A stretch of DNA of 18,223 nucleotides from NCBI GenBank assembly GCA_034667685.1, contig JAXDQU010000051.1:1-18223 (forward strand). The letters are read 5' to 3'. The translations under genes and the position numbers were made by a program. Positions 2,610-18,223 of this stretch are shown here, piece after piece (the first letter of the stretch is position 1; each line of letters starts with the position of its first letter). This DNA comes from Thermoplasmata archaeon (GTDB taxonomy: Archaea; Thermoplasmatota; SW-10-69-26; JACQPN01; JAJPHT01). Below the pieces are notes generated by a model, which did no database searches, was not told the origin of the DNA, and saw only the letters and a program-made list of their open reading frames with translations.

Positions 2610-4049
2610 CTATGGCGCCGTGATGGTGCCCTGGAGGGGCGTGCTGGTGCCCACCGTGGAGCCGCCGACGCCGCCGTGCAGGCCGCACGTGTCGCTGCCC
2701 GCGAGGGGGCCCGTGAGTAGACCTGTGCCCCCAAGGCCGCCGCCGGCCGAGCTGCCATCACCGACGGGCGCCGGGCAACCCGAGGTGTCGATGAGGGGCG
2801 GGTTCGCGATGAGGCCGGTCTCGCTGGGGCCGAAGATGATGAATGCCCACGCGCTGCCGTCGTTCACGCCGTAGCACTGGACGCCGTTGGGGTCGGCGCG
2901 CGCCGTGCCCTGCGCGACCGGGCCGAAGAAGCTCGCCCACGGGTCAGGGTCGGTCGTGCTGCCATCGTGCGGGTTCACGTTGGGCGCAAGCGTCGCGCTC
3001 CATCCTCCGGGGAAGTGGCCCGTGATGCCCTGGCCGCAGTCGAAGGGGTCCGTGTCGTAGTTGTCCGAGATGACACCATTGCCGGCGCAGGGGCTCCTAA
3101 CAGCGTCCAGGCCGCCGGTCTGGCCGTCCGTGCCGAACGCGTAGTCCATCAGGAGGTTCGCGGTATTGGACTGGACCGTCGCGGTCGCGCCCCAGCCGCC
3201 GCTGTGGTGGCCCACGACAGGGTAATCCTGGTCACACGCACCCTGGGAGACCTCAGGGAATTGGGCGGCGCCCATCCCGGTCTCGTGGTCGCCGTCGCCG
3301 CTCAGGCAGCCGCTGGTGTCGAACACTTGGGCCGAAGCGGCGTTCGGGGCGCCGATGAACTGGCTGTCCATCGTGACGCCGAAGGCGCTGCTGACCACGA
3401 AGACGTGGATCGCCTGGGTGGGCTGATAGTTGGGGTTCGAGGCGTCACACAGCGCGATTAGCTGAGGCACGACTGGCACGGGCACGGTTGGCACCGTTGG
3501 CACGACTGGTACGGGAACGGTTGGCACGTCTACCTGAGACGATAGAACGCTCATGTCGCAGAATACCCAGTAGTCGGCGCCGTCGCCGCCCACGAGACTG
3601 CTTTCATCCACAGTGCAGAGCCAAGGCGTTGTGCCGTTGCCGACCGCCTGGGCGCTACTACCCGGGTCCTTGAAGGGAATCCCCAAGGTCTTCGTCACCG
3701 AGAGCGCCCCGCATGTTGACGTGACCCTCAGGAGGCCTCCGCCGGCGGCGGCATGATATCCACCCGCGTCCACAATATTGCAGGTCGAGGAACCCAAAGG
3801 CACGCACGAGACTCCCGGATTCGGCGAGCTAAGCGAGTCGCCGGCTTTGACGGGAAGTCCCGTGTTGATGTCGAAGCAGAGATCAAGGGGTGGCGCGACG
3901 AGCAACTTGACCCCTTGGAACGAGAAGCGGTGGATCGTGACGTGGCCCTGAGGCGGGCTGGTGGTCACGGCATGGACGAGCCCGGATGCCGAAAGCGCAC
4001 CGGCGAGGAGAACGAACGCAACGAATGTTACGATTGGATGGCGACACAT
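2610..4049 (-). CDS. Secreted Gly/Cys/Asp-rich protein of unknown function (479 aa)
   Basis: N-terminal hydrophobic signal IVTFVAFVLLAGALSASG; long ORF; Pro/Val linker between two domains; many Cys. Confidence 0.75.
   Translation of the reverse strand: MCRHPIVTFVAFVLLAGALSASGLVHAVTTSPPQGHVTIHRFSFQGVKLLVAPPLDLCFDINTGLPVKAGDSLSSPNPGVSCVPLGSSTCNIVDAGGYHAAAGGGLLRVTSTCGALSVTKTLGIPFKDPGSSAQAVGNGTTPWLCTVDESSLVGGDGADYWVFCDMSVLSSQVDVPTVPVPVVPTVPTVPVPVVPQLIALCDASNPNYQPTQAIHVFVVSSAFGVTMDSQFIGAPNAASAQVFDTSGCLSGDGDHETGMGAAQFPEVSQGACDQDYPVVGHHSGGWGATATVQSNTANLLMDYAFGTDGQTGGLDAVRSPCAGNGVISDNYDTDPFDCGQGITGHFPGGWSATLAPNVNPHDGSTTDPDPWASFFGPVAQGTARADPNGVQCYGVNDGSAWAFIIFGPSETGLIANPPLIDTSGCPAPVGDGSSAGGGLGGTGLLTGPLAGSDTCGLHGGVGGSTVGTSTPLQGTITAP
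3466..3527 (-). repeat. 33-nt-period tandem duplication encoding VPTVPVPVVP twice
   Basis: GGCACGACTGGCACGGGCACGGTTGGCAC (3466-3494) vs GGCACGACTGGTACGGGAACGGTTGGCAC (3499-3527), 2 mismatches. Confidence 0.85.
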
Positions 4050-4361: not shown

Positions 4362-4477
4362 GTGTCGGCAGGCACGCAGGGCCGATGGACTCATCCTGCG
4401 TCTTGCCGACACGGGGGTCCTCGCCCGATTCCGCCCCCCTGAAACCCCCGCGAGGTCGCCGCGCTACGGCGCGGCGA
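4362..4477. other. Intergenic stem-loops (terminator or structured RNA)
   Basis: Long bulged stem GTGTCGGCA..ACGCAG..GATG / CATC.CTGCGT..TGCCGACAC (4362-4412); perfect 9-bp stem TCGCCGCGC-TACG-GCGCGGCGA (4456-4477). Confidence 0.55.
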
Positions 4478-4505
4478 GACGGCGATGATGAGGCTTTGCA
4501 CTCGC

Positions 4506-5477: not shown

Positions 5478-6659
5478 TCAGAGGCCCAGTGTCTTGGCGA
5501 TCGTCCAGCGCTGGATCTCGCTGGTGCCCTCGGGGATGCGCACGAGCCGCGCGAAGCGGAAGACCTTCTCGAGGCCCATCTCCTTCATCAGGCCGCTCCC
5601 GCCGTGGACCTGGATCGCCCGGTCCGCGGCGCGGAAGAGCGCCTCGGTGCAGAACACCTTGACCGCGCTCGACTCCATGACCACGTCGATCCCGTTGTCG
5701 ATCCGCCACGCCGTGTCGAGCATCATCGTGTGCGCGGCGTAGAGGTCGATCGCGGTGTCGGCCATCATCGCCTGCAATTGGCCCTGCTTGCCGATCGGCT
5801 TGCCGAACGCCTTGCGCTCCTTGGCGTAAGCGACCATCCGCGCAAGGCAGTGGTCCGCGAGGCCGACGCATTGGCCCCCGATGGTGACGCGCGTGTCGCC
5901 GATGTTGCCGATCGCGAGCGCGAAGCCGTCGCCCTCCGCGCCGACGCGGTTCTCCGCGGGCACGCGGCAATCCTCGAAGATCCACTCGCACTGGCCGCCG
6001 TCGTCGAGGATGCTCTGCTGGACCGCGCCCATCCTGGCGCCCGGCGCGTCGCGCGGCACGAGGAAGCACGAGAGGCCCGCGAGCCCCGCGGCGGGATCGG
6101 TCTTGGCGAAGACCTGGAGGAAGTCGGCGTACGGGCCGTTGGTGACGAACGTCTTCGTCCCGTTGAGCACGTACTCGTCTCCATCGCGCGCGGCGGTGGC
6201 CTCCAGCGCCGCGACGTCGCTCCCCGCGCCCGGCTCCGTGAGGCAGAACGCGCTGCTCTGCTCGCCGCGCACGAGCGGCTTGAGCCACTTCTCCTGCTGC
6301 GCGGGCGTCATCCGCAGGAAGAGCGGGCTGGGTCCCTCCACGAACGATAGCACGCCCATGTTGAGGCCGACGCCGCGCGTCATGGCCTCGCGCCACGCCA
6401 GGTACGTCGCCACCTTGCTGACGCCCGCGCCGCCGACGGACTCGGGCATGTGCATGGCGTACCAGCCGGCGGCCGCGCTCTTGCGGCGGATCCGGCGCGT
6501 GGCCTCGACGAGCTCGGGCTTGAGGCGCCCGTCGGGCAGCAGCGGGTCCGCGAGCACGCGCGCGAGGCGCTTCTCCTCGGGCGCGACCTCCCGCTCGATG
6601 AAGGAGGCGACGCCCTCGCGGATCATGCGGACTTCATCGGGGATGGTGAAGTCGACCAT
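5478..6659 (-). CDS. Acyl-CoA dehydrogenase
   Basis: Motifs MPESVGGAG, FCLTEPGAGSDV, LNGTKTFVTNG, RKAFGKPI, AIQVHGGSG, RIPEGTSEIQR. Confidence 0.97.
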   Translation of the reverse strand: MVDFTIPDEVRMIREGVASFIEREVAPEEKRLARVLADPLLPDGRLKPELVEATRRIRRKSAAAGWYAMHMPESVGGAGVSKVATYLAWREAMTRGVGLNMGVLSFVEGPSPLFLRMTPAQQEKWLKPLVRGEQSSAFCLTEPGAGSDVAALEATAARDGDEYVLNGTKTFVTNGPYADFLQVFAKTDPAAGLAGLSCFLVPRDAPGARMGAVQQSILDDGGQCEWIFEDCRVPAENRVGAEGDGFALAIGNIGDTRVTIGGQCVGLADHCLARMVAYAKERKAFGKPIGKQGQLQAMMADTAIDLYAAHTMMLDTAWRIDNGIDVVMESSAVKVFCTEALFRAADRAIQVHGGSGLMKEMGLEKVFRFARLVRIPEGTSEIQRWTIAKTLGL

Positions 6660-6736
6660 GCGGCGGAAAGCCCGGCGGCGGCCTTGGCGTTTTCCCCCGG
6701 CCGAAGGTTCTTGTCCGGGCTGGCGTCTCGCCGCGC

Positions 6737-7285
6737 GTGCGAGGCCTAGGCGTGCTTCTCGTCGCGCTGCTCCTGGCGGGGTGCTCCGCCGCGCCCGCGA
6801 TCCGGCCCACGCCCGCGCAGCCTCCGGCGCCGCGGCCCGCCGCGCGCATCGACGCCCTCGCGCCGCCCGCGCTCGTGGGCACGGTGGCCGGCTACGCGGA
6901 GCCGAATCTCGCGGTGGACCGCCAAGGCCGCGTCTTCGTCACGGATCCGCAGTCCCTCGCGCTTTGGCGCAGCGACGACGCGCAGACGTTCCAGCTCCTC
7001 GGCCAGGACCCGTGCACGGCGGCCTTGGGCGCGTGCCCCGCCCCGTCGCCCACCGCGCCCGCGTCGTGGCTGCGGGGCGGCTCCGACGGCGCGCTCACGG
7101 CGCTGCCCGACGGCACGCTGGCGTGGGCCGGGCTCGACGTGCCGCACGTGGGTCCCGGCGCGTTCGGCGTCCCGGTGCAGACGAGCCGCGACGGCGGCGC
7201 GACGTGGGACTCGCAAGTCCACAGGACCGCCGGAGGGCCAGGCGAGGGCCAGCCGTGGGCCAACCCGTTGAGGCTCCCTGCTTGA
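6737..7285 (+). pseudogene. Lipoprotein with Asp-box (BNR/sialidase-like) repeats, apparently truncated near 7210
   Basis: Lipobox LLLAGC; EPNLAVD..GRVFV; Asp-boxes WRSDDAQTF and TSRDGGATW. After the second box, codon usage changes and the frame ends ~24 codons later, too short for a beta-propeller. Confidence 0.6.
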
Positions 7286-7352
7286 GTATTTTCAGAGCGC
7301 GCCAGAACCACTTGAAGGCACGCCTCCGGACGCGAAGCGCCGCGGTCGGGAC

Positions 7353-8606
7353 TCATGCCGTGCTCCGCTCGATCCCGACGAAGGGCCCCCGAGCCCGTTG
7401 CTTCAGCTCGAACGCCTTCCGAGCAGTTGCGTCGGCGTAGTCCGCGCCCCGCTCGCACGCCTTGGAGCCCTTCAGCCGCTTGTCCTGGAGGATGGCGCTG
7501 ATCTTGGCGGGCCCCCAAGGCGGGCCTCGGCTGAGCGCGAGTTCCGCGAGGGCGAGGGCGGCGACGAAGTCGCTCCGGCTGCGGCCGCCGTCGAGGCTCG
7601 ACAGGGGTGGTCGCTCGCCCAAGAGGACGCGCCAGTGTTCCGACAGCTTCGGGCTGCCCACCATCCAGGCGCAGACCTCCCGCCATTCTGCCTCCGTGAC
7701 TTCGGGGAGCGGACCGACCGGCGCGGGAGCGACCGGCGCGCGCGGCGGCGGCGCGGGCGTGTTGGTGTTGCCCGCAAACGAACGATGCTGAACAAGGCAA
7801 TCGTACAGGTCCGGCGGCAGGATCTTCCTGGCGGGCGCAATCAAGCCATCCGCGAGGCTCCTGCCGGCGAGGAACTCGTACCGGATCCCCGCGGCGTGCA
7901 CACTGGGCGGTGCCACGAGCAGGCCGCCCTCGCCGCGAACGTCGATCCCCTCCATGAGCTTCATGTTCGGCACTTCCGGCTGGCGCACGTAGATGTGATA
8001 GCCGCGCCAGGTGCGCACCACGAGGGTGAGATTGGCTAGCTCGCTTGGCGAGCGTCGCAGCGTCTCGCGCACGAGTTCGGGCCTATCGAAGTCGAGCCCA
8101 ACGAGAAAACCGCTCGGGCTGCCCGTCACGACGCCGACGTTCTTCTCCTCGACGAGGCGACTCCCAAGCTTCCAGTCCGCTAGAAGCGGCTTCTTGCCGC
8201 CCCGACAGGCATTGCACGAGCTTGTTTCCCAGGGATGCTCCCGGCACGGCGCGCAAGGCTCGTGCAAGGGTGTCGTGCGCAAGCCCAGCCGGCGGTAGAA
8301 GCCCGCAAAGATTCCGTACGCCTCCACCGTCGCCGTCTCGGTGTGAACCGGGCGCTCCGCAATCTCCCCGAGAAGCGCCTGTGCGGCGAGCGCGGCTTCG
8401 CCCCGCTCCCAAATGCTCTTGGGAAACGCGCCCACCGCATGAGGCGTCCTTCCTGGCAGCGTTGTTCTCGCGCGGTGTATCCGGGCGGCATCGCTCGCGA
8501 GCGCCTGGACGCCGTACTCCTCGTGAAAGTCGCAAGTGCGACAATCCGCGACATATCGCTCTGCTATCTTCTCAACCTTCCATGACTTCGGAAAAGGGCA
8601 GATCAA
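7353..8606 (-). CDS. Bifunctional DNA primase/polymerase (Prim-Pol) with C-terminal helical domain; start uncertain
   Basis: Motifs GKKP, NVGVVTGSPSGFLVGLDFD, VRTWRGYHIY, GIDVRGEGGLLVAPPSVH..G.RY; C-terminal RSRSDF...RGADYADATARKA. Confidence 0.9.
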   Translation of the reverse strand: MICPFPKSWKVEKIAERYVADCRTCDFHEEYGVQALASDAARIHRARTTLPGRTPHAVGAFPKSIWERGEAALAAQALLGEIAERPVHTETATVEAYGIFAGFYRRLGLRTTPLHEPCAPCREHPWETSSCNACRGGKKPLLADWKLGSRLVEEKNVGVVTGSPSGFLVGLDFDRPELVRETLRRSPSELANLTLVVRTWRGYHIYVRQPEVPNMKLMEGIDVRGEGGLLVAPPSVHAAGIRYEFLAGRSLADGLIAPARKILPPDLYDCLVQHRSFAGNTNTPAPPPRAPVAPAPVGPLPEVTEAEWREVCAWMVGSPKLSEHWRVLLGERPPLSSLDGGRSRSDFVAALALAELALSRGPPWGPAKISAILQDKRLKGSKACERGADYADATARKAFELKQRARGPFVGIERSTA

Positions 8607-9072
8607 TGCCCGAGAACGACAATTGGCCCAAGTCGCGCTCGGCCACGCCGAGTGCCTCTTCGCGCTCTAGTCCGGCCAGTGTCGAGCGCAGGGCGAGGAT
8701 CGTGCGTTGGCGCATTGTGGCCGCGCCGCGATACTCGTGACTCCAGACGGCCCGGTCGGCGCGCTTGTGCGCGAGCTTCCACTTCACGCCCTCCATCATG
8801 GTCGTGTACGCGTTCGCGTCCACCTTGCGGGCGCGTTGCGTCGCGACGATGAGCCAGTAGAATCCCGAGTCCTGCTTTGCTCCTGAGCCGATGGGCGCGC
8901 CGACGTGGCGCCGCTTCATGGCGCGAAATGCCATCGTCCACCGGTCGGGCGCCAGCTTCGTCTCCCGCCACCTCCCGGCGTATTCCCACTCGTGCGTCAG
9001 GCCGATGGGAGCCCCGACGTACTTGGCCCCGCTGGGCGAGACCTTCACGTCGTCGTACGCCAACGCGGCCAC
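8572..9072 (-). CDS. Conserved hypothetical protein (Trp-rich, basic)
   Basis: GTG start right after the upstream stop. G.TH.W.Y.G.W.ETK..PD.W....KRR..AP.GSG....YW.I.A.Q...K..AN.YTT.M.G.K.KLAHKRA resembles an uncharacterised family I recall from other prokaryotes (unverified). Confidence 0.8.
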   Translation of the reverse strand: MAALAYDDVKVSPSGAKYVGAPIGLTHEWEYAGRWRETKLAPDRWTMAFRAMKRRHVGAPIGSGAKQDSGFYWLIVATQRARKVDANAYTTMMEGVKWKLAHKRADRAVWSHEYRGAATMRQRTILALRSTLAGLEREEALGVAERDLGQLSFSGIDLPFSEVMEG

Positions 9073-9073
9073 C

Positions 9074-9628
9074 TCAGTCCAAGGTGAGGCGGGCCTGCTC
9101 CAGGCGCGTGTAGTTACGGCCGAAAACCTGGAGCGTCCGAACGCGCCGGAACGGGCCCATCGTCACGGCGATCTGCGCCTGGCGAAACCCGCCAGGGAAC
9201 CACTTTGATGGAAAGACGCGCTCGTGGAGGATCGCGAGCTGGCGGCAGGTGCGCCAAATCTCAGCGGCCTCACGGCGGTACATCTTGTCGTAGGGCGGAT
9301 CCCAATACCCCAAGCCAAAGCACTCGTTCAAGAACGGGAGGTGAAGCCAATCCGCGCGGAGCGCGCGCGGCGTGCGCGGCGGCGCGAGATCCACCGCGAG
9401 CAGGTCAGCGGGGATGCCGTCTCGCGCGCCGAAGGCCACCTCGGGCCGCCCGAAGGTCTGCGCGACCCGCTCGAAGACGGCGCCGCTTCCCCACCCCCGC
9501 GTGCGGGGGCGAGGGCAGGCCCACAATCCAGTCCGGACCGGCGGCCGTAGTCCCGCCGCGTGGAGCCGGAGCTGCCAGAGGGCAAAATCGGCGTCGTACC
9601 GCGTCGGCCCCCGTGGCGTGGGCTTCAT
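9074..9628 (-). CDS. Small amino-(N6A/N4C) DNA methyltransferase-like protein
   Basis: LAVDL...RADWLHLPF.NECFGLGYWDPPY gives a SAM-binding region plus the DPPY catalytic motif; ATGA overlap with the upstream gene. Confidence 0.7.
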   Translation of the reverse strand: MKPTPRGPTRYDADFALWQLRLHAAGLRPPVRTGLWACPRPRTRGWGSGAVFERVAQTFGRPEVAFGARDGIPADLLAVDLAPPRTPRALRADWLHLPFLNECFGLGYWDPPYDKMYRREAAEIWRTCRQLAILHERVFPSKWFPGGFRQAQIAVTMGPFRRVRTLQVFGRNYTRLEQARLTLD

Positions 9629-10161
9629 GCGAACGCGTCCAGCGTGTCTCTCCTCTGAGGCGGCTCGCCCCGGCTGGCGAGGCGCGCCTGGAGCACGACC
9701 TCGTAGGGCGACGAGGCGCGACGCCAGGCGTTCCGCTCGTCGGGCGCCCAGGGCCACTCGACGCTGGCCGGATCGCGCGCCCAAGCCCAGCGGAAGCACC
9801 GATCGCAGTGGGGCGGCTCGCCCGCCGCGCGGGCCGCGCCGCACTCGCAGCAGTAAAGGCGTCCTCGCTCGTCGCGGGGACGGCCGCGCGTCCAAGCCTC
9901 GTACAGCTCCGACCCAGGCGGCGCGGACGCTATGCCCTCGTCCCAGGCCGCATCAGCCAAGTCGTAGGCGCGGAAGAGCTGTACCGTCATGACGCCTTCA
10001 GGCTCGGGCTCAGGAGCGCCGCGGGGCAACTCCAATCCGCAAGCGGCCACAAAAGTGGCCAAGGGCTCACACTCCACTTGATCGGGCGCGCGCATCGTCA
10101 TGGCTTCGTCAGGCTCCAAGGCGTAGCGGGCGAGGCGCTTCAGCGACCAGTCCGTGCTCAC
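9625..10161 (-). CDS. Hypothetical Zn-finger protein
   Basis: CCECG...HCDRC; overlaps at both ends (GTGA, ATGA). Confidence 0.65.
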   Translation of the reverse strand: MSTDWSLKRLARYALEPDEAMTMRAPDQVECEPLATFVAACGLELPRGAPEPEPEGVMTVQLFRAYDLADAAWDEGIASAPPGSELYEAWTRGRPRDERGRLYCCECGAARAAGEPPHCDRCFRWAWARDPASVEWPWAPDERNAWRRASSPYEVVLQARLASRGEPPQRRDTLDAFA

Positions 10162-10448
10162 GATGTCGCGCTCCTTCCCTGCTGTTGCACCTCGTACGAT
10201 GGCGCGAGAAGGGGTTCGACGGTGCGTTCCCAGCACTCCTGGCAGTAGAGATCCGGCGTGGGCGCGTACGGTCCGCTCGTCCGGATGACGTACTTGCCCT
10301 TCTCGTCGGCGACGTAGCCGTAGATCACGGCATCCTGCTGCCCGCACTGGGCGCAAGGAAAGAAGATTGGGAGGCGAGCGCCCCCGCTCGTCGTCCAACC
10401 CGCTCGCCACTGCATGGGCATCTTGAGCCGGGTCGCCATCAACGTCAT
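10158..10448 (-). CDS. Small Zn-finger protein
   Basis: CAQC...YCQECW; ATGA and GTGA overlaps. Confidence 0.65.
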   Translation of the reverse strand: MTLMATRLKMPMQWRAGWTTSGGARLPIFFPCAQCGQQDAVIYGYVADEKGKYVIRTSGPYAPTPDLYCQECWERTVEPLLAPSYEVQQQGRSATS

Positions 10449-10756
10449 GCTGACCCTCCAGGACGGAGCGCGCCCTTCGCGATCTCGACCGCTTCGATGA
10501 GACGCTTCGCGCTGCCGACCACTGCGGCCGACTTGCCCCCGTTGGCTCCACCAGCGAGATACACCGTGTAAGGGTGCTCGCGGTTCCAGCGCAGCTGGAT
10601 GGCCGACTCCTTGTCGATGAAGAGCAACTCCCACGGAATGCCGAGGCGATAGCGCGTCAAGTGGTCGTTTAGCCCAAAGACCGCTTCCACCTCGTCGGGG
10701 ACTCGCTTGTGGACCCAGCCCTTGCGAGTCTCGTACGAATCAACAAGGTGGCTCAC
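10445..10756 (-). CDS. Hypothetical protein (103 aa)
   Basis: GGAGGA SD before the GTG; stop overlaps the next ATG. Confidence 0.65.
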   Translation of the reverse strand: MSHLVDSYETRKGWVHKRVPDEVEAVFGLNDHLTRYRLGIPWELLFIDKESAIQLRWNREHPYTVYLAGGANGGKSAAVVGSAKRLIEAVEIAKGALRPGGSA

Positions 10757-10791
10757 GCCAATCCTCCAATGAATCGAGACTCGGGCATGAT

Positions 10792-11046
10792 TCAGGCATC
10801 AGTGCGGGTGAGTTCGGCGGGCTCGCCGCGCTCGTCGCAAAGCCAGGAGCCTTCCTCGTTCTGCGCGATGACGCCCCTGGGAAATCGGCGGACCACGAAC
10901 GTCTTGTCCGGCAAGGGATCGAGGCACGCCGAAGCGTTCGGATTCCCCGCGCGATCCACCAACGCCTCGGCCTCCGCTCGCGTGGGCGCCTCGACGAAGT
11001 AGATGTCCACGAGACGACAGGTCTTGACGATGACGAAACGCGTCAC
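10792..11046 (-). CDS. Hypothetical protein (84 aa)
   Basis: GGAGGAG SD and GTGA overlap; VEAPTRAEAEALV pattern common in small viral proteins. Confidence 0.6.
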   Translation of the reverse strand: MTRFVIVKTCRLVDIYFVEAPTRAEAEALVDRAGNPNASACLDPLPDKTFVVRRFPRGVIAQNEEGSWLCDERGEPAELTRTDA

Positions 11047-11447
11047 GAGCGTCTCCTCCCGCTGAGGAGCTGGCGAGCGCCCTCGGGGTCGCGTGACCAT
11101 TTCTCTAGGCGGAGACGGATGGCTCCCGGCTGGCGGCCCAGCTCTGCGGCGATCTGCCGGAGCGTTCGGCCCGCGTCCCGCAAACGCAAGAGGAGCACAT
11201 CATCCTCCTTCGCCCACGGAAAGAATGCGTTAGGGCAGGTAACGCGGACCCGCGCGATGCGCTCAGCTCGCGACTCGACGCGCGCCGCGCCTTGGGTTTC
11301 GAGCGCGGCAAGCCCTTCGCCTGCGGCGCGGGCGATGTCGTCGCGCGTCAGCGTGGGATGGAGCGCGAGGATCTCCTCGTGCGTGTGCCCTTCGTAGAGC
11401 AGGTAGAGGATGGCCCTGCTCGTTTCTTCGGGCGCGCTCGGGGCCAC
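11043..11447 (-). CDS. DUF433-like plus C-terminal HTH protein
   Basis: ILYLLYEGHTHEEILALHPTLTRDDIARA is the DUF433 pattern; PWAKEDD.LLL.L...GRTLRQIAAELGRQPGAIRLRL is an HTH. Confidence 0.75.
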   Translation of the reverse strand: MAPSAPEETSRAILYLLYEGHTHEEILALHPTLTRDDIARAAGEGLAALETQGAARVESRAERIARVRVTCPNAFFPWAKEDDVLLLRLRDAGRTLRQIAAELGRQPGAIRLRLEKWSRDPEGARQLLSGRRRS

Positions 11448-11449
11448 GC

Positions 11450-12712
11450 CTATCCCTCCGTGGGGATCACGACTTTGTGCACGCGGGGGAACCGCGGCGC
11501 CTCCTTGACCGTCCGCTCGTAGCGGATGTCCGCCTTCAGGGCGGGACGCAACCACATCAGCACCGGCTTCGAGAGCACCGGACGACGCGCGAGCGGGCAT
11601 TCCCTGACCTGGTAGGCGGGCGTGGCGTCCATGACGCGGACCAAGTCGGCGTCGCGCAGACCGCTACCAGCGCAGCAGACGTACTCGAGCCCTCCCTCTG
11701 CTTCGCGGGCGAGGATGAACGCCCCGAAGCTCTGGACGCGCTTGCCGGTCCCCTCAAGGAGGCCCACGACCACGAGGTTGTCAACGCGGGCGGGCTCCTT
11801 CGCCTTCCTCCATGCGTTGCTGCGCTTGCCTACGTAGGGCGCGGTCGTGTCCTTCACGATCACGCCCTCGCCCTTCGCTGCAAGCACCTCGTCATAGAGC
11901 GCGAGCATCGCATTGGTCGCCTTGGCGACGTGGAGGCCACGTCGTGCGAGGATCTCCAGGCGCGCGCGGCGAGCGGCGTAGATCAGTGGCCGCAGGTCGT
12001 GGTTGCCCTCTTGCAGCAGGTCGAAGGCCACGAAGGTCATGGGGTTGCGGGCCACGTGCGCCCGGATGCGCAGCCGATCTGTTCGGGGGCGCTTCTGGAG
12101 CACGTTCACGTCCATGCGGAGGCCCGATGCGTCGAGGCTGCCCAGTTCGCCGTCGAGCATGACGTCACCCAGTTCAAGCTCTTCGAGCGTGGAGACGACT
12201 TCGGGGAACCGATGCGTCTCCTCTTCGCCCTCGCGCGAGAGGAGGCTCGTGACGTGGTTCTGCTTGATGGTGGCGATGATCCGCATGCCATCGAGCTTGG
12301 TCTCTGCCACGTAGCGCGACCCGCCACTGAGCCGGGCGAGATCCGCGCGCACGTCGGTCCACGCGCCCGGCTCGGCGAGCATCACGCCCACCCCGAAGCC
12401 CGTCGAGGGGAGCTGCGCTGGTGGCCCGACGGTGAGGACCGGCGGAGGAGCCGGGGAGGGCTCCGCGGCGGAGGCGTCGGCCTCCGCGCGGTAGCCCTTC
12501 CCCGTCTTCTCTGCCACGAGGCTCTCGTACTTCTTGCGGGCCGTCGCCTCGTCGGTGGCCTCGACCTTGTAGCCTTGGGTCAAGTGAGCTCCCCGGCGGC
12601 CGTACTCGAACCACACCGACCATGCTGCACCTTCGCGGCGCAGTTGGGCGTGGTACACTTTGTCGCTCGTGCCCTCGCGAAAGGCGAGGGCTACGCTCTC
12701 TACGGTTTCCAT
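11450..12712 (-). CDS. ATP-dependent DNA ligase with N-terminal WGR domain
   Basis: WGR: SDKVY...YGRRG...A.KKY..LVAEKTGKGY. Ligase motifs I ETKLDGMR, III LDGEL, IIIa FVAFDLL, IV EGVIVK, V WRKAK; OB-fold GSG...RFPR. GAGGT SD before ATG 12712. Confidence 0.93.
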   Translation of the reverse strand: METVESVALAFREGTSDKVYHAQLRREGAAWSVWFEYGRRGAHLTQGYKVEATDEATARKKYESLVAEKTGKGYRAEADASAAEPSPAPPPVLTVGPPAQLPSTGFGVGVMLAEPGAWTDVRADLARLSGGSRYVAETKLDGMRIIATIKQNHVTSLLSREGEEETHRFPEVVSTLEELELGDVMLDGELGSLDASGLRMDVNVLQKRPRTDRLRIRAHVARNPMTFVAFDLLQEGNHDLRPLIYAARRARLEILARRGLHVAKATNAMLALYDEVLAAKGEGVIVKDTTAPYVGKRSNAWRKAKEPARVDNLVVVGLLEGTGKRVQSFGAFILAREAEGGLEYVCCAGSGLRDADLVRVMDATPAYQVRECPLARRPVLSKPVLMWLRPALKADIRYERTVKEAPRFPRVHKVVIPTEG

Positions 12713-12732
12713 GTTGAACCTCGAGAAGGAAG

Positions 12733-12927
12733 TCAGCGGCGGCCGGGCCGGTTCCGGGCGCGAACGCACTTCGCGCACTCCGGCGCGCGTCGCGAGGGAG
12801 CATCCACGAGCGTCCACGAGGCGCGCACGCGCAGCCCACAGTGCGTCTTGCGGGCGTCGCTGCTCGTGTGCGTCTTTTTGTGGGCGACCACGCGCGTCTC
12901 GTAGTACGCGTAGCCCAGCCTACTCAC
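12733..12927 (-). CDS. Small His/Cys protein (64 aa), possible Zn binder
   Basis: TH...THCG...CAKC; GTG overlaps the upstream ORF end and the gene fills the operon gap. Confidence 0.5.
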   Translation of the reverse strand: MSRLGYAYYETRVVAHKKTHTSSDARKTHCGLRVRASWTLVDAPSRRAPECAKCVRARNRPGRR

Positions 12928-13084
12928 CGCCCGCGGGAAGCGTGCGCAGGAAGAGGCGCGCCGCCTCGGTCGAAGAGAAGGGCACCACAAGCACGACAAA
13001 TCCGCCGGAGTCGGGGAACGTGCCCGAGCTTGCCAATGCGCGATAGGGCGCGCCCGCGATGTTCACGACCACGGTTCGCCTCAC
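12920..13084 (-). CDS. Hypothetical small protein (54 aa)
   Basis: GTGA overlap with the upstream gene; fills the gap exactly. Confidence 0.45.
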   Translation of the reverse strand: MRRTVVVNIAGAPYRALASSGTFPDSGGFVVLVVPFSSTEAARLFLRTLPAGGE

Positions 13085-13626
13085 GCCGCGGCCCCCCGCT
13101 TCTTGCCCGCCGCCGTGGCCGGCTTCGCCTTGCGCGGCTTCGGTGTCACGAGCGGCGCCTCGACGCTCGGGGCCGGATCTGACGCTTCGGGCGCGGGTTC
13201 GGCGGGCTTGCGGCGCGTCTTTGCGGTCTCCATGCAGTAGGCCGCGCCGTGTCCATCGCGTGAGGCGGCGACTTCCTGGGCTTCTTCGGGCGTGTCGCGC
13301 ACGAAGAGCGTGCCGCAATCCTCGCAGCGCAAGCCGTATCGGACCGGCCCGTCGGCGCTGTTGGGATAGTAGGTGAAGATCGCGCTTCCTGGCGCGATAG
13401 GCTCCAGTGTGGGCCAGGTCCGCTTCGGCGGCACGTACGGCTCCACCCTGGGGCCGGCGGGAACGCGCCGTGTCTCGGTGGCTGGGGGTGGCGCGGCGAG
13501 GGCTTCTGCCGTGGCCGCCGACCAGCCGCACTCGCTGCACGTTCCGTCGGGCGCGTCGAGGGACGCTCCGCATTGGGGGCAATCGGGAACCTCGTCGCCC
13601 ACCTCGTCGGGATCAGACGAGGGCAA
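13081..13626 (-). CDS. Zn-ribbon protein with Pro/Lys-rich tail
   Basis: CPQCG...CSECG and CEDCG...H...C; TTG start overlaps the end of the Ku-like gene. Confidence 0.7.
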   Translation of the reverse strand: MPSSDPDEVGDEVPDCPQCGASLDAPDGTCSECGWSAATAEALAAPPPATETRRVPAGPRVEPYVPPKRTWPTLEPIAPGSAIFTYYPNSADGPVRYGLRCEDCGTLFVRDTPEEAQEVAASRDGHGAAYCMETAKTRRKPAEPAPEASDPAPSVEAPLVTPKPRKAKPATAAGKKRGAAA

Positions 13627-14527
13627 AGGCGCTCACCACCCTCTTCTCTGGCTTCGTCTGCTCGGCCTTGGGGATGGGGACGCGGTTTTCGACGCTCGCC
13701 ATCACCAGCTCCTCTTTGGCGTCGCGCTTGACATCCTTGTCCAGCATGGCCAAGAGCCCTTTCTCGGGCGTCTCGCCTTCCCATGCTTGGGCTGCGTGGG
13801 CGGCGCCGGCCGCATAGAGATGATCGTACTCGTCGCGCGAGAGCTCGTCCACCGGGTAGGCGGGGACGCTCTTGGCGTCCCGGTCGAGGTTCACCTTGAA
13901 GAGCAATAGCGCGCCAGACTCGGCGAGCGTCACGAAGGCCAACCGGGAGTTGCCGCGCTGGCGGACCACCGCGAGGCCGACCCTGTCCGTGAGGTAGGCG
14001 TGCAAGCACGCCCAGACCTTGCGCGTGTCCGCTGCCTCGTTCGAGGGCACGATGCTCATGCTCCCTTGGACCAGACGCGCAAGGTAGTCGCGCAAGCCCC
14101 ATGCACCGGCCAAATCCTGCGGGATGGGTCGCAGGACGCGCACCTCATCAGGCAGGCCCTTCGTTACTTCGGCGGTTGCTTCGGCGTCCGCCGGCGCGAT
14201 CACGGCGACCTCGCCGCCGGTCTTGTACCCCTTCAGCGCCGCGTCCTTCGAGACGAGGGCCGCCTGGAAGAGGCTCGCCAACTGCGACTCCAGCTCGCTC
14301 TGCGAGAGGGCGTGGTCCGCGAGGTGCTCGGCCATGTCCTTGATGGCCTGGTCGCGGCATGCTTCGCATGTCTTGGGCTGCTTCACCGGCAGCTGGTGCA
14401 CCGGGCAGAGCGTCGAGAGCGACACCGCGCTCGCGCCCGTCTTCGACGCGGCCAAGCCCGTGAGCTCGACCTCGATGTCGATCTTGGTCTTCTCGACCCA
14501 GAATCGGATTCCTGACTTCTTCGCCAC
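13613..14527 (-). CDS. ku: Divergent prokaryotic Ku-like DNA end-binding protein
   Basis: Colinear with the Ku core: IEVEL..., VSLSTLCPVH..PVKQPKTCEAC, VSKDAALKGYK.GGEVAVI...D.E, EVRVLRPIP, IVP.....KVWACL...L.DRVGLAVVRQRGNSRLAFV......LLL. GGAGGAG SD before GTG 14527. Confidence 0.75.
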   Translation of the reverse strand: MAKKSGIRFWVEKTKIDIEVELTGLAASKTGASAVSLSTLCPVHQLPVKQPKTCEACRDQAIKDMAEHLADHALSQSELESQLASLFQAALVSKDAALKGYKTGGEVAVIAPADAEATAEVTKGLPDEVRVLRPIPQDLAGAWGLRDYLARLVQGSMSIVPSNEAADTRKVWACLHAYLTDRVGLAVVRQRGNSRLAFVTLAESGALLLFKVNLDRDAKSVPAYPVDELSRDEYDHLYAAGAAHAAQAWEGETPEKGLLAMLDKDVKRDAKEELVMASVENRVPIPKAEQTKPEKRVVSAFALV

Positions 14528-14605
14528 GAAGACTTCTCCTCCCGCCACGCGCGGCGGGGCAGGGCTCGCGCTCGCAGCGAAGCGATGCGCGATCCAACGA
14601 CGCGC

Positions 14606-14992
14606 CTACGAGGCGTTCTCGCTCTCGCGGCGCCGCTCGTGCGCCAGCCTGAGGAGGCTCGCGCGCACGAGGCTAGGCACGCGCTCCTCCAAGACCCAGC
14701 CCAACCTCGCAGGCGGTTCCCCGCCCAGGTACACGGGCATGTGCGCGAGTTCCTCGCGCACAAAGCCCCGCAACTCGCCCTTCCCCATCTGCGCGGCCAA
14801 CTCGATCTCGAAGCCATGACAAGCCAGCAGGGCTTCTTCGACGGCCTCCGCGGCATAGAGCGCCCACGCGCACGCCTGCAAGGTATTCGCATCGTGCGAA
14901 GACAGCCTGGTTGCGCAGGCGTTGCAGGAGCCCACGGGATCCGCCAGCTTCGCTCGCAGGTCGGGCCACGGCGGCAAGAGGAACTTCGTCAC
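14606..14992 (-). CDS. Hypothetical protein (128 aa)
   Basis: GAGGAGG SD and GTGA overlap; CNAC...H...C. Confidence 0.6.
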   Translation of the reverse strand: MTKFLLPPWPDLRAKLADPVGSCNACATRLSSHDANTLQACAWALYAAEAVEEALLACHGFEIELAAQMGKGELRGFVREELAHMPVYLGGEPPARLGWVLEERVPSLVRASLLRLAHERRRESENAS

Positions 14993-15102
14993 GCCTCCTC
15001 ACCCGCCTCGTCCTGACCTGTCGCTTGCTCTCGGCGCCAACGGACGCGTGATTCGTCGATGAGCCGGCGCCAGCGCCGGCCCGACTCGGCCGCGCCCTTC
15101 AC
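14989..15102 (-). CDS. Possible 37-aa peptide
   Basis: GTGA overlaps at both ends; no recognisable motif. Confidence 0.35.
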   Translation of the reverse strand: MKGAAESGRRWRRLIDESRVRWRREQATGQDEAGEEA

Positions 15103-16841
15103 GCGACACCCGCCGCAGGCGTGGGCGCAGGCACAGCCGACGCGGGGGCGGGAGCGACCTTGCGCGGCTGCTTGGGCGGCGCCCGGATGGGCACCTTCGC
15201 GGCGGCGCGCACGCGCTCGTCGTGATAGCCGGCGATGAGCGCGCCCTTCGGCCTCGACCGACACGCCGCCTTCACCTTGACCAGGCAGACGGGGCAGGCC
15301 ACGCGCCGGGGGTCCTCCCACCAGCGCGTGCGACGCACCTTCCCCGAGCCGTGCTCCTTCAGTTCTTTCCGCATCTGCTTCTCCGCGCTGGTGCTGATCT
15401 CCTTGATGCTCGTGCGCGCCACGAGCTCCAGCGTGCCCTCATAGCCGCGCATGTACGTGGCCAGGACGGCCGCGACGAAGTGCGAGCGCTTTTCGCCCTT
15501 GAGCCCCTTGACGTACTTTAGCCGCTCCTCGTACGTCATGCCCTTCTTCGCGATCGGGTACGCGCTCGTCTTGTTGCCCCACGCCATCACGGCGGGGTAG
15601 GGCAGCTCGACGCTGGTGGCGATGCGATCGGCCTCGCCCTCGTCGTACTCGGCTACGCGGCAGAGCACGCGGAGCCCTAGCTCGTCCACGACGCTGGGCG
15701 AGGAGCGCGCGGCTCCTTTGGTGAGCGCGATGAGCGCCTGCTCCTGCGTGCGGCGGTGAAGCTCGTTGTTGAAACGCCGCTGATCGTCCTTCTGGCGCTG
15801 CTCCTCCGTCTTCGTGGACTTCTTGCTGCGCGCCTTCGCCTTCTCGGCCTGCTCCTGCTCGATGGCTGCCTGGACGGCCTTTTCGAGCTCTGGCTGGGGG
15901 AAGTACCGAATGGGCCTGTAGGCCGGGTCCGCCAGGGATGGGGCCGCCTCGAACGCGGCCACGAGCGCGCGCCTGTTCCTGATGTCCCAAGGCACGTCCT
16001 CCCGCCACCCCAAGGATTCCAGGCGATGGATGGTGTCCCACCGGATGGAGTGCCAGTCGCGCCGTTCCGGGGCCGCACCGCGCAGGACCTCCGCCACGGC
16101 CTCCTTGACTTGGGTCGCTAGCGTTTCATTCTCGACGCCCTTCGCCTGGACGAATGCTTCCAGGCTGCGAAGCGCGCCCTCCTGCGAGCAGTGCTCGGCG
16201 GCGTAGGGACCGTACGTCGGGCCGAGGGCGTGGATGCGAAGGCGCTGCTCGACCCACGATTCGCTGTGGCCCGCGAGACGGGCCAGTGTCTTGATGCTGA
16301 TTCCTGGCGTGGCTTCGCGCAGGCGGGAGAGGGCGCGGCCCTGCTCGTACGAGTTGTGCGCCTTGACGCCCACGTTCTGGACCAGGCTGCCCGCAGCCGC
16401 CATCGCTTCCGTCTGCTCGGTCGCGTAGCAGAGCGCCGTCGCGTACTGCTCAGGATCCGTCTTCTGGAGGATCATGAGCGCGGCGTGGCGGTGGTGCCCG
16501 TCCGTGATGAAGAACTGACCCGGATTGTCCGGGTCGGGCCGCACGTCAAGCGCCGTGCGCTGGCCGGCGAGGCGGATCATGTCCGCCAACTCGTGGGCCC
16601 AGGCCTCGTCGATCTCGCGCGGCTTCTTCGGATCGTGCTTCAGCTTCGCCAGTGGCACGAGCATCGTCGGCCGCTCGCTGGGCCGTATGCGCACGAGGCT
16701 TGGGTCGAACGCGCCCAAGTCCGCCTGCGCCGCGTCCGCCATGTTCGCCGCGCGGACCTGCGCCCGCGACGGCCTCTTCTTGCCCTTCACGGGCTCCTGC
16801 GCGCCCCCAACGTGGGGCGCCTTGGTCTTGGTCTTCTGCAT
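15099..16841 (-). CDS. ParB/Spo0J-family protein with HTH and C-terminal Zn finger
   Basis: VPLAKL..DPKKPR.....ELADMIR..GQ...LDVRP....FFITDGHHRHAA; HTH SIKTLARLAGHSESWVEQRLRI; CPVC.......C...........H.ER. GGTGAT SD before ATG 16841. Confidence 0.88.
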   Translation of the reverse strand: MQKTKTKAPHVGGAQEPVKGKKRPSRAQVRAANMADAAQADLGAFDPSLVRIRPSERPTMLVPLAKLKHDPKKPREIDEAWAHELADMIRLAGQRTALDVRPDPDNPGQFFITDGHHRHAALMILQKTDPEQYATALCYATEQTEAMAAAGSLVQNVGVKAHNSYEQGRALSRLREATPGISIKTLARLAGHSESWVEQRLRIHALGPTYGPYAAEHCSQEGALRSLEAFVQAKGVENETLATQVKEAVAEVLRGAAPERRDWHSIRWDTIHRLESLGWREDVPWDIRNRRALVAAFEAAPSLADPAYRPIRYFPQPELEKAVQAAIEQEQAEKAKARSKKSTKTEEQRQKDDQRRFNNELHRRTQEQALIALTKGAARSSPSVVDELGLRVLCRVAEYDEGEADRIATSVELPYPAVMAWGNKTSAYPIAKKGMTYEERLKYVKGLKGEKRSHFVAAVLATYMRGYEGTLELVARTSIKEISTSAEKQMRKELKEHGSGKVRRTRWWEDPRRVACPVCLVKVKAACRSRPKGALIAGYHDERVRAAAKVPIRAPPKQPRKVAPAPASAVPAPTPAAGVA

Positions 16842-16876: not shown

Positions 16877-17557
16877 CTACGCCGTGGCGAGGCGAGTCTG
16901 CCCGCGGGCGTTGACTCGGGCGCGCGTCACGCGCGAGGCGGGCACGAAGAGCTCGAAGGCCGAGGAATCCACCGAGTCGACGCCCGCGAGTTCGAACATC
17001 GTGAGAGCTTTCCTTCCCGAGACGCGGCCCACATGCACCTTCAGCCCGAGCTTGTGGGCGAGGCGCACGGCGGGGCCCACCACGCGCCGCTTGAAGCGCG
17101 CGTCCCCGCCCACGAAGAGGCCCCAGAAGGGCGTCGCCTCCTCCGCGGCCCAATCGAGCGCCTCCGCCACATCATGGATGGTGATGCCATTCTGGATGGC
17201 GAGATACCACGGCGTCTCGGCGGGCAGGCGCTCGATCCAGCGGAGGCTGTGCTCCAACGAATCCTCGCTGAGCGGCTTGTCAGGACAGACTCCGAAGTCA
17301 GGCCCGCGAATCGCCCACGCCTGATGGTACATGCGCGGCATCTCCAAGTCGTCGTCGTAGATTGCGTACTTGCAGAAGCGCTCCTCGTCCCACGGAATGC
17401 CCAGCTTCCAGGCGCGAAAGGCGCCGTTGTCGAAGCACCAAGGAATGTCCGCGAGTGGCTTCTTCCAGCTCCAAGGCGAGACGAGTCGGCCCAAGGCGTG
17501 CTGACGGATTTCACCCAGGGCGCGCTCGCCGCCCACGCTGCCCGCATACACCCTCAA
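16877..17557 (-). CDS. TGT/DpdA-like transglycosylase-fold protein (candidate DNA base-exchange enzyme)
   Basis: Motifs in TGT-barrel order: FDNGAF, VCPD, AIQNG, LFVGG, VHVGRV, GVDSVDSS. Start (TTG 17557 after GAGGT) is inferred. Confidence 0.7.
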   Translation of the reverse strand: MRVYAGSVGGERALGEIRQHALGRLVSPWSWKKPLADIPWCFDNGAFRAWKLGIPWDEERFCKYAIYDDDLEMPRMYHQAWAIRGPDFGVCPDKPLSEDSLEHSLRWIERLPAETPWYLAIQNGITIHDVAEALDWAAEEATPFWGLFVGGDARFKRRVVGPAVRLAHKLGLKVHVGRVSGRKALTMFELAGVDSVDSSAFELFVPASRVTRARVNARGQTRLATA

Positions 17558-17574
17558 GGGCAAACCTCGCGAGG

Positions 17575-18222
17575 TCAGGCCGTGGCGAAGGACTCCAAGC
17601 TGGGCCGCTGCAGGTCGTCGAGAATGCTCCGGATGAGCGCCCGACCCATGTTGACGGTCACGACGTTGCCGATCTGCTTGATCTGCTCCTGGCGCGACCC
17701 CTTGAGGACGTAACCACGCGGCAGGCCTTGGAGCGCAGCGAGCTCGTGAGGTTGGAGCATACGGAAGGGGAGCACAATGCGCGCGAAGCCGTCCCGAACA
17801 GGCATGACAAGGCCGAGCCGATCGCGGCACGTTACGGTGGACCCCGGCTCGTCCACGCTGCTCACGCCGCGGCCGTTCTTGTGGTACTTGACCAAGAAGG
17901 GCCGCACGAGACCGCCGGCTCCGTGGCCCGTCACAGCCGGCGCGGGCGCGTCGAGGCGATGCACACGGGGCCGTTGGCCGTGCGCCTCACCGAAGTTGGG
18001 CACGAGAAAGGGCGTCGCCAAGCCCACGCGGTCGCTCGCCAAGATCGTCGGCGCGGGCCGGTCGGCACCGCGCGGTCGGCTGCGGTTCGTGCCCGGCCGA
18101 TCCGTCGTGACAACGAAGGGCGTCACCACATGCCCGCCGCCGCGCATCGCGCGCACCGTGGGCGCGGGCAAGTCCACGCTGCGAGCTGCGTTCTGCCCCT
18201 CCTCGTGATACGGACCCGTGAG
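17575..18222 (-). CDS. DNA (cytosine-5) methyltransferase, C-terminal part; 5'-truncated by the window
   Basis: Motifs IX/X: RMLQPHELAALQGLPRGY.L.G.....KQIGNVV; preceded by repeated PAPT(V/I) units of the variable region. Confidence 0.88.
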   Translation of the reverse strand, partial: LTGPYHEEGQNAARSVDLPAPTVRAMRGGGHVVTPFVVTTDRPGTNRSRPRGADRPAPTILASDRVGLATPFLVPNFGEAHGQRPRVHRLDAPAPAVTGHGAGGLVRPFLVKYHKNGRGVSSVDEPGSTVTCRDRLGLVMPVRDGFARIVLPFRMLQPHELAALQGLPRGYVLKGSRQEQIKQIGNVVTVNMGRALIRSILDDLQRPSLESFATA

Positions 18223-18223
18223 G

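Follow-up and report, generated by a model that had tools for sequence, protein, structure and literature searches.

A putative Ku and WGR-ligase end-joining cassette on an accessory island of a Thermoplasmata archaeon

Ku and ligase genes on contig C51

We analysed the entire 18,223-bp contig C51 (the window) of a Thermoplasmata archaeon, which carries on its minus strand a gene for a very divergent Ku protein and, two genes downstream, a gene for an ATP-dependent DNA ligase fused to a WGR domain (Table 1). The source bin comprises 3.48 Mb in 124 contigs (completeness 99, contamination 1.29) and is referred to as the host genome (G000); in addition, G003 denotes a congener, P00xx protein relatives, L0xx loci and C contigs. 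The archaeal setting assumed in a preliminary description, which had been made from the letters of the window alone, was borne out: the rRNA operon of the host, with a tRNA in its spacer, scores 1498 bits with the archaeal small-subunit (SSU) model as compared to 1086 bits with the bacterial one, and a full archaeal SSU (1509 bits) is found in a genome from the same family. The GC content of the window ranges from 63 to 75%, which makes long spurious frames common. Genes were therefore judged on GC content at the third codon position (GC3) and on homology. By these measures, all supported genes from ~7.3 kb to the contig end lie on the minus strand, and the description of a Ku-like open reading frame (ORF) and a complete ATP-dependent ligase in one co-oriented cluster was confirmed. 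For Ku, the start at 14548 is preferred since it yields the 'MA' start common to most rows of the family alignment, whereas the end previously given, 14527, corresponds to the 304-aa form used by the public gene call (P0001). The Ku stop overlaps the following 181-aa ORF by 14 nt.

The identity of the Ku protein emerged from its relatives. Searching 1.84 billion cluster representatives with phmmer returned 14 proteins at E<=0.001 (five at E<=1e-10), i.e. the window Ku and 13 relatives, which makes the family a rare one. A 14-row alignment of this divergent family (A1) gave a profile that matches Ku structures in the PDB, namely B. subtilis Ku (9vnq, 4.1e-12) and M. tuberculosis Ku (8v53, 6.5e-11; 9i91, 6.7e-11). 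When taken singly, 12 of the 14 members match the Ku family PF02735 at E<=1 (best 5.1e-8), the window Ku being one of the two without a match. Modelling with AlphaFold2 (AF2) from the single sequence yielded a mean predicted local distance difference test score (pLDDT) of 35.3; with the 14-row alignment, the model reached a pLDDT of 76.6 and a predicted TM score (pTM) of 0.62, with blocks in residues 130–250 at pLDDT 80–94. All top Foldseek matches of this model in the PDB are Ku, led by 9vnq (2.4e-10; TM 0.53 by query and 0.69 by target), after which apo M. tuberculosis Ku and then human Ku70/80 are ranked. Among the viral structures in BFVD just two matches at E<=0.001 were obtained, and both are Ku (Mycobacterium phage Dylan Ku, 9e-10, and an uncultured-phage Ku homolog). 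Searches starting from the lone sequence were less informative: phmmer against the PDB gave nothing meaningful (best match a ribosomal protein at 0.085), a word-indexed search found only the protein itself, and tblastn against 50,697 phage records gave no match. Scans of viral contigs with Ku and with the ligase returned no relatives. Phage Mu Gam was considered and set aside, as PF07352 appears neither among the matches of the window Ku nor in the set of five families recorded at E<=1 when the 14 members were scanned.

The host also possesses its own Ku. Its contig C79 encodes an ATP ligase (PF01068, 1.1e-33; PF04679, 1.1e-26) with a canonical Ku (PF02735, 2.6e-43) immediately after it, and this pair (L013 6267–7793 and 7843–8589) sits among core lysine-biosynthesis genes, so that the cassette in the window represents a second, unrelated set. 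Alignment of A1 to the host canonical Ku with hhalign gave 97.8% probability (E 7.9e-13) at 18% identity. In a maximum-likelihood tree, 16 divergent rows are split at 100/100, on a long branch, from eight canonical Ku of the host lineage; the canonical locus L009, which has no usable ORF, was left out. The canonical archaeal Ku in this tree track genome relatedness. In its C-terminal region, the family has the consensus DPYRDARE...LLALL, to which eDtYRqa (B. subtilis Ku) and DLLAK (M. tuberculosis Ku) are aligned. Taken together, the family profile, PF02735, Foldseek, BFVD and hhalign agree; for the family as a whole, the assignment to Ku is far beyond chance, and ORF 13613–14548 is a genuine Ku from a separate, highly divergent clade, in line with its initial designation as Ku-like. 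With the A1 profile, Ku matches were obtained in 11 of the 41 lineage genomes, the host included. Ku-dependent end joining is regarded as rare among archaea; this little-known class seems relatively rich in genes for non-homologous end joining (NHEJ).

The ligase, likewise, proved to be complete and WGR-fused, as had been proposed. It matches PF01068 (5e-23), PF04679 (1.3e-9) and the WGR family PF05406 (4.5e-8; 33.5 bits, cut-off 22), the WGR span corresponding to residues 44–113 of the 455-aa form of the protein. In addition, the PADLOC model WGR_XIII matches residues 1–87 at 6.1e-18. A retron type XIII effector was nevertheless rejected, because only the WGR part, that is profile positions 1–89 of 973, is matched and no other PADLOC match occurs in ten island proteins. 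The best NCBIfam model is that of the LigD ligase domain (TIGR02779, 3.8e-45; 154.4 bits, below the cut-off of 227.75), and the best PDB match is the ligase domain of M. tuberculosis LigD (1vs0, 2.2e-16). In an alignment of seven ligases of this clade (A2), the motif residues KxDG (with motif I lysine K139), LDGE, FD, EG..K, WxKxK and PRxP are invariant in all seven, and these intact catalytic motifs make the ligase look active. Three of the seven carry the WGR domain, namely the window ligase, P0016 and P0017 (aligned in A3). In each of them, the name-giving Trp is replaced by Tyr or Phe (YGRRG/FGRRE). No match to the polymerase (POL) domain PF21686 was found in the ligase, and none to the phosphoesterase (PE) domain PF13298 in the ligase or in 20 scanned ORFs of the window.

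Linkage of the genes and their accessory island

Linkage of Ku and ligase, noted before in the window only, recurs in related DNA. Metagenome searches with the ligase alignment yielded 25 loci, three of which carry a clade-type ligase scoring >400 bits (L039, L040 and L041). Within 3.8 kb of the 4.7-kb locus L039, a helix-turn-helix (HTH) gene, a family Ku (307.6 bits), a small Cys ORF and a WGR-ligase follow each other on one strand. Just as in the window, the stop of Ku and the ORF behind it overlap by 14 nt, and the WGR-ligase begins one base past the end of the small Cys ORF. The HTH gene, located just upstream of Ku, is 43% identical (E 1e-26) to the DUF433/HTH gene next to the window ligase, and judged from this similarity the DUF433/HTH gene travels with the cassette. 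In L040, the start of the ligase falls at the very beginning of the contig, the upstream side lying beyond it. L041 is almost certainly the element of G003, in which contig C46 carries, on the same strand and 16 kb apart, a Ku of the family (E 1.4e-46) and a clade ligase devoid of WGR (E 1.2e-52). Moreover, five pairs of Ku and ligase homologs have longest contigs of equal size, i.e. 12289 bp (P0003/P0016), 4633 bp (P0002/P0019), 7095 bp (P0053/P0018), 3423 bp (P0004/P0054) and 9730 bp (P0010/P0020), which supports the linkage indirectly. The contigs of P0007, P0008, P0009, P0011 and P0012 (1.1–5.3 kb) are too short to judge linkage. The linkage is recurrent but not universal. At E<=1e-22, the Ku family occurs in two of 401 sampled genomes of the phylum, both from one genus and in unrelated accessory regions, and the clade ligase occurs in two of 21 genomes of the class.

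The preliminary description had placed three small ORFs between Ku and ligase, two of them rich in Cys and His. Cys-rich ORFs are present there, but two rather than three were found. The 181-aa ORF consists of an N-terminal zinc-ribbon-like motif, a Pro-rich linker, a conserved C-terminal part and a basic tail. Its matches to DZR and Zn_ribbon_3 are below the Pfam cut-offs (E 0.002), and a search of the ESM Atlas gave no lead (best score 0.78). Residues 73–172 match, at 32% identity (E 8e-7), the ORF that directly precedes the ligase of L039. The 88-aa ORF, whose status is uncertain, has no relative in L039 or L040.

The cassette lies on a strain-specific accessory island, as the following comparisons reveal. 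The left 6.7 kb of the window are host DNA including two acyl-CoA dehydrogenases; the segments conserved therein, which comprise both dehydrogenase genes plus two shorter stretches, show 72–89% identity in five related genomes. Beyond window position 6664, DNA matches in the five relatives are limited to one 360-bp stretch and a few weak matches of <115 bp. The 360-bp stretch (11077–11436) belongs to the HTH/DUF433 gene, which is 78% identical in G003:C20 and matched also in G001:C115 and G004:C51; thus, related regulators sit in other elements of the genus. In G003, the match to window position 6664 lies 10 bp from the match to position 3333 of host contig C42, and C42 beyond 3333 is nearly unmatched in relatives (stretches covered: 1–20000 and 31001–62636). 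The adjoining flanks in G003 and the unmatched DNA indicate that the cassette is part of a large insertion specific to this strain. In two runs, taken from two studies, contigs span the border between host and island (5799–11361 in X1, possibly the source, and 5799–6827 in X2), and the cassette sequence is without a single difference in the contigs of both runs. In a window stretch of host DNA, a segment of ~50 bp (4435–4485) recurs at more than 20 places in G003 with 83–93% identity and may represent either a short repeat that is dispersed or a regulatory element that is conserved.

Further genes were recognised on the island (Table 1). A Prim-Pol further downstream had been noted before and is located ~2.8 kb from the ligase; it matches the replicative model PF09250, no LigD polymerase family is among its matches, and it is probably the replication enzyme of the element. 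Several small ORFs without a family lie between Prim-Pol and the DUF433/HTH gene. One ORF adjoining Prim-Pol (8572–9072, minus strand, 166 aa) belongs to no known family. Its product is 43% identical (E 4e-32) to that of L040 1463–2122, directly downstream of the WGR-ligase, and this family may be another travelling companion of the ligase. On the other side of the cassette, the 128-aa ORF upstream of Ku has no match in Pfam, PHROG, NCBIfam or PADLOC. The DpdA-like ORF also has a weak queuine tRNA-ribosyltransferase match (0.0025) and possibly forms a DNA-modification pair with the adjoining C5 methylase; the long ORFs of the two overlap, and their starts are approximate. Similarly, the long ORF of the DUF433/HTH gene, reaching to 11600, overlaps the ligase. 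The methylase cut at position 18223 continues on contig C103 and not at the C42 end. On C103, a protein resembling the anti-restriction factor ArdC is encoded, with an ArdcN match (2.5e-30) and a zincin peptidase domain, and there is a lone 120-aa ORF for a Cdc6 C-terminal winged helix (1.1e-22) without a recognisable AAA+ part upstream (C103 ORFs noted: L144 3994–4941, 2943–3305 and 7251–8375).

Among 12 large ORFs of C42, only fn3 domains and a clamp-loader-like ATPase were recognised. Where the strain-specific region is low in GC, it contains a 3576-aa open frame (C42:11459–22189, minus strand) whose GC3 of 0.88 is of the coding type, and a 139-aa stretch of this frame is 37% identical to a frame in G003:C46. 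The island ORFs at C42:47870–49138 and ~51214–51751 have DNA matches of 67–70% on three and two different contigs of the congener G002, respectively, which suggests multi-copy mobile-element genes. Over 72 kb of the G003 region, a six-frame tblastn comparison (1e-6) found nothing in common with the island apart from the clade ligase and part of the giant ORF of C42. The region around the G003 Ku has one DNA match to the host genome, and its Ku is neighboured by a C5 methylase, an N6/N4 methylase and DUF3560.

Table 1. Annotated features of the Ku and ligase cluster and of flanking island genes in the window.
Feature	Position	Strand	Evidence
Divergent Ku, 311 aa, GTG start	13613..14548	-	Family profile, AF2 model, Foldseek; GC3 0.88
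Small Cys-rich ORF, 181 aa	13081..13626	-	Zinc-ribbon-like N-terminal CxxC...CxxC; GC3 0.82
Possible Cys-rich ORF, 88 aa, uncertain status	12733..12999	-	Open frame, GC3 0.84
WGR-fused LigD-type ATP-dependent DNA ligase, 420 aa (P0015)	11450..12712	-	PF01068, PF04679, PF05406
WGR domain of ligase, residues 9–78 of 420-aa form	12479..12688	-	PF05406 33.5 bits; PADLOC WGR_XIII
Nucleotidyltransferase (adenylation) domain of ligase	11798..12382	-	PF01068 5e-23, profile positions 2–204 of 204
OB-fold C-terminal domain of ligase	11474..11734	-	PF04679 1.3e-9
DUF433/HTH regulator-like gene, approximate start	11043..11430	-	DUF433 3.5e-5, HTH_23, Sigma70_r4
128-aa ORF upstream of Ku, no known family	14606..14992	-	GC3 0.87
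Prim-Pol	7353..8606	-	PF09250 8.4e-17
ParB-like protein with phage zinc-finger domain	15099..16841	-	phrog_1033 2.6e-15; PF24623 3.3e-6; TIGR00180 1.2e-8, below cut-off
DpdA-like ORF	16877..17830	-	phrog_15826 6.1e-19
C5 methylase, C-terminal part, cut by contig end	17575..18222	-	Pfam

A proposed end-joining module and its alternatives

We consider it fairly likely that the cassette constitutes a portable two-protein module for DNA end joining on an archaeal accessory element. In this scheme, the divergent Ku would dimerise into a ring on double-strand ends and would work with a LigD-type ligase dedicated to it, whose gene lies two genes further downstream in this compact, co-oriented cluster. 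The WGR domain, which is tethered to the ligase core by an Ala/Pro-rich linker in the window ligase and in the two related ligases, would by analogy with the WGR of the PARP family most likely help the ligase to find 5'-phosphorylated breaks or nicks. It would thereby stand in for the extra domains that assist other ligases in binding DNA. As the kit is without polymerase and phosphoesterase, it should seal only clean ends, i.e. cohesive or blunt 5'-P/3'-OH ends, which would suit cos-like termini or restriction cuts. The C5 methylase and the DpdA-like, ParB-like and ArdC-like proteins in the neighbourhood suggest that the cassette would most likely rescue or recircularise the element's own DNA upon host entry or after cutting. 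By this guilt by association, the neighbours point to an establishment or anti-restriction function, which is probably the job of the module.

WGR-less clade ligases also pair with family Ku, so that any contact to Ku should be made through the ligase core. For this reason, complex prediction was run with two copies of Ku and ligase residues 100–420. The score, which covers the ligase partner only, was 0.49 (runs 0.49, 0.52 and 0.30), as compared to 0.01 for the best of three controls; at least 71% of contacts are shared between runs, and the partner pLDDT is at least 83. The mark for a pass is reached by 58 of 80 solved complexes and by two of 110 mismatched pairs; it is reached with a score of <=0.60 by only seven of the 80 and by both passing mismatches. 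Since Ku-ligase assemblies have already been solved, the pass may reflect likeness to these. The predicted complex thus lends weak support to cooperation of the two proteins.

A more ambitious version would see here a portable machine of three parts, composed of the new Ku clade, a LigD-type ligase with a WGR break sensor, and the small zinc-ribbon protein with its basic tail as accessory factor. Such a machine would serve counter-defence by re-sealing DNA after restriction or CRISPR cuts, or would recircularise it on entry, independently of the Ku-ligase pair of the host, and its WGR would be the prokaryotic counterpart of the PARP break-sensing module. We regard this extended version as doubtful.

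For the two-protein end-joining module, a number of observations have to be entered on the opposite side, and they are collected in this and the next paragraph. The score of the predicted complex is no stronger than stated. WGR is missing from four of the seven clade ligases (P0018, P0019, P0020 and the G003 gene), at least four such ligases still pairing with family Ku, and the earlier idea that WGR replaces the accessory domains of LigD is no more than an analogy. Pfam and NCBIfam scans of the ORFs revealed no LigD-type polymerase or phosphoesterase on the island. In view of this and of the canonical Ku and ligase that the host has of its own, the self-sufficiency ascribed to the joining system in the preliminary description goes further than the sequence supports. 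With regard to linkage, there is the 16-kb separation of the two genes in G003, and four family Ku on contigs of 23.7, 82.9, 154 and 36.6 kb (P0005, P0006, P0013 and P0014, respectively) have no same-sized ligase contig listed. The latter two findings would be expected if Ku and ligase did separate jobs, with Ku acting as a Gam-like end shield against host nucleases and the ligase sealing nicks or Okazaki fragments together with Prim-Pol, so that they were adjacent only as DNA-metabolism genes. Indeed, the genes for Prim-Pol, the ParB-like protein and Cdc6_C on the island suggest autonomous replication, and WGR could equally serve nick sensing in this process. However, the tight order of Ku, small ORF and ligase is repeated in L039, and the five Ku/ligase pairs share equal-sized contigs. 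Moreover, the ligase core is closest to the ligase domains of NHEJ-type LigD rather than to replicative Lig1-type enzymes and is without an N-terminal DNA-binding domain of the Lig1 type, and the Pfam scans of the Ku family give PF02735 rather than the Mu Gam family. We therefore judge a division into separate jobs to be unlikely.

Signs of mobility are scarce as well. Scans of 31 distinct island ORFs with Pfam and/or PHROGs revealed no integrase, capsid, terminase or conjugation gene, the longest word common to both island borders measures 13 nt and provides no att repeat, and no tRNA was found in the window or in C42:1–20000. In the contigs of the two runs, no joint with a side of >24 nt was detected, that is neither an excised circle nor an empty site. 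There is also no obvious need for a second set, as the host already has a canonical Ku beside a ligase. The island might accordingly hold an accessory repair set of the host, a second NHEJ pathway for desiccation or stationary-phase stress with no role for a mobile element; its chromosomal integration in both runs, the failure to recognise a mobility gene among the scanned ORFs and the frequency of Ku in the lineage would agree with this. This explanation appears rather improbable to us, because the family is patchy, because the neighbours (ArdC-like protein, orphan methylases, ParB-like protein, Prim-Pol) are typical of plasmid or virus establishment, and because the host's vertically inherited Ku, whose tree follows the genomes, is already in place. 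Concerning Ku itself, the window protein alone has no match in Pfam, PHROG, NCBIfam or PADLOC, it is the most divergent member of its family with the longest tip in the tree (1.39), and its C-terminal motif reads DKDVKRDAKEE...SAFALV. Judged from its sequence, this departure from the consensus could impair Ku function or ligase recruitment. Together with an extra two-helix insertion at residues 62–97, these features might indicate that the gene is a remnant, either in decay or neofunctionalised, and has ceased to act as Ku, leaving only the ligase functional. We hold this to be very unlikely, given that the frame is open and full-length with strong coding bias (GC3 0.88; GC content at the second codon position, GC2, 0.44), that the core of the model is confident, that four other members have insertions at the same site and that the identical sequence occurs in a second sample. 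The two-protein end-joining module thus remains the reading that we prefer.

Relation to known systems and significance

Prokaryotic two-component NHEJ, as in M. tuberculosis and B. subtilis, relies on a Ku homodimer and LigD; Ku dimers ring the DNA ends and recruit the ligase. The module proposed here shares with it a putative end binder of the Ku fold whose gene is linked to that of a LigD-type ATP ligase core. However, the window Ku falls into a separate clade, the ligase has an N-terminal WGR instead of POL and PE domains, the stretch between the two genes includes a small conserved Cys ORF, and the module is carried by an island while the host keeps a canonical pair. As a ligase-only protein, the enzyme resembles the split form of archaeal NHEJ in Methanocella paludicola, where Lig, Pol and PE are separate. 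A further parallel is provided by the mycobacteriophages Omega and Corndog, which bring Ku only and use the LigD of the host. Here too Ku is found on a mobile element, and the best viral structural match of the window Ku is a mycobacteriophage Ku; in contrast to these phages, the archaeal element brings its own ligase. Finally, the WGR domains of PARP1-3 are eukaryotic sensors of DNA breaks. The window ligase has the same Pfam domain, which makes break recognition plausible by analogy, but WGR is joined to a ligase rather than to an ADP-ribosyltransferase and has exchanged its Trp in all three clade members.

Fusions of WGR to ligases are not new as such. The accessible parts of a sequence-network review by Williamson and Leiros (2020; PMC7470946) describe an NT-OB_2-WGR cluster in delta-proteobacteria and Planctomycetia as well as a Prochlorococcus marinus ligase with an N-terminal WGR; these WGR-ligases are noted there to have an OB domain of the OB_2 type, to come from genomes without Ku and to be functionally uncharacterised. 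They have in common with the window ligase the fusion of WGR to a minimal ATP-dependent ligase, whereas the latter has PF04679 rather than PF14743 and is paired with Ku. When we examined 80 bacterial WGR loci, 28 carried an N-terminal WGR and a ligase domain, at only ~30% identity to the window ligase and with scores of just 22.6–50.3 bits against the clade ligase profile; a Ku profile match within 10 kb was found at none of the 80. As to Ku, the accessible part of a 2025 survey (PMC11936186) lists 19 archaeal and 11 viral proteins, the viral ones all from actinophages and none from an archaeal element. Searches of the main texts of the openly accessible literature revealed neither a pair of Ku and WGR-ligase nor a Ku on an archaeal virus or plasmid. 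The WGR-ligase fusion has already been noted in silico (PMC7470946); what is described here is a separate Ku clade on archaeal accessory DNA, together with a LigD-type ligase that is dedicated to it and in some cases fused to WGR, and with a small partner ORF that is conserved.

These findings show that annotation from sequence only misses an entire Ku clade. For viruses and mobile elements, Ku-type end joining is catalogued in the accessible part of the survey only as lone actinophage Ku (PMC11936186). The pair of WGR-ligase and Ku offers a simple two-protein system for learning what WGR domains do in prokaryotes, and its small size (311 + 420 residues) could interest builders of end-joining tools for organisms lacking NHEJ. 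If the proposed module is real, end joining would be a transferable trait that elements use on their own DNA, with a bearing on how they survive restriction and CRISPR cleavage.

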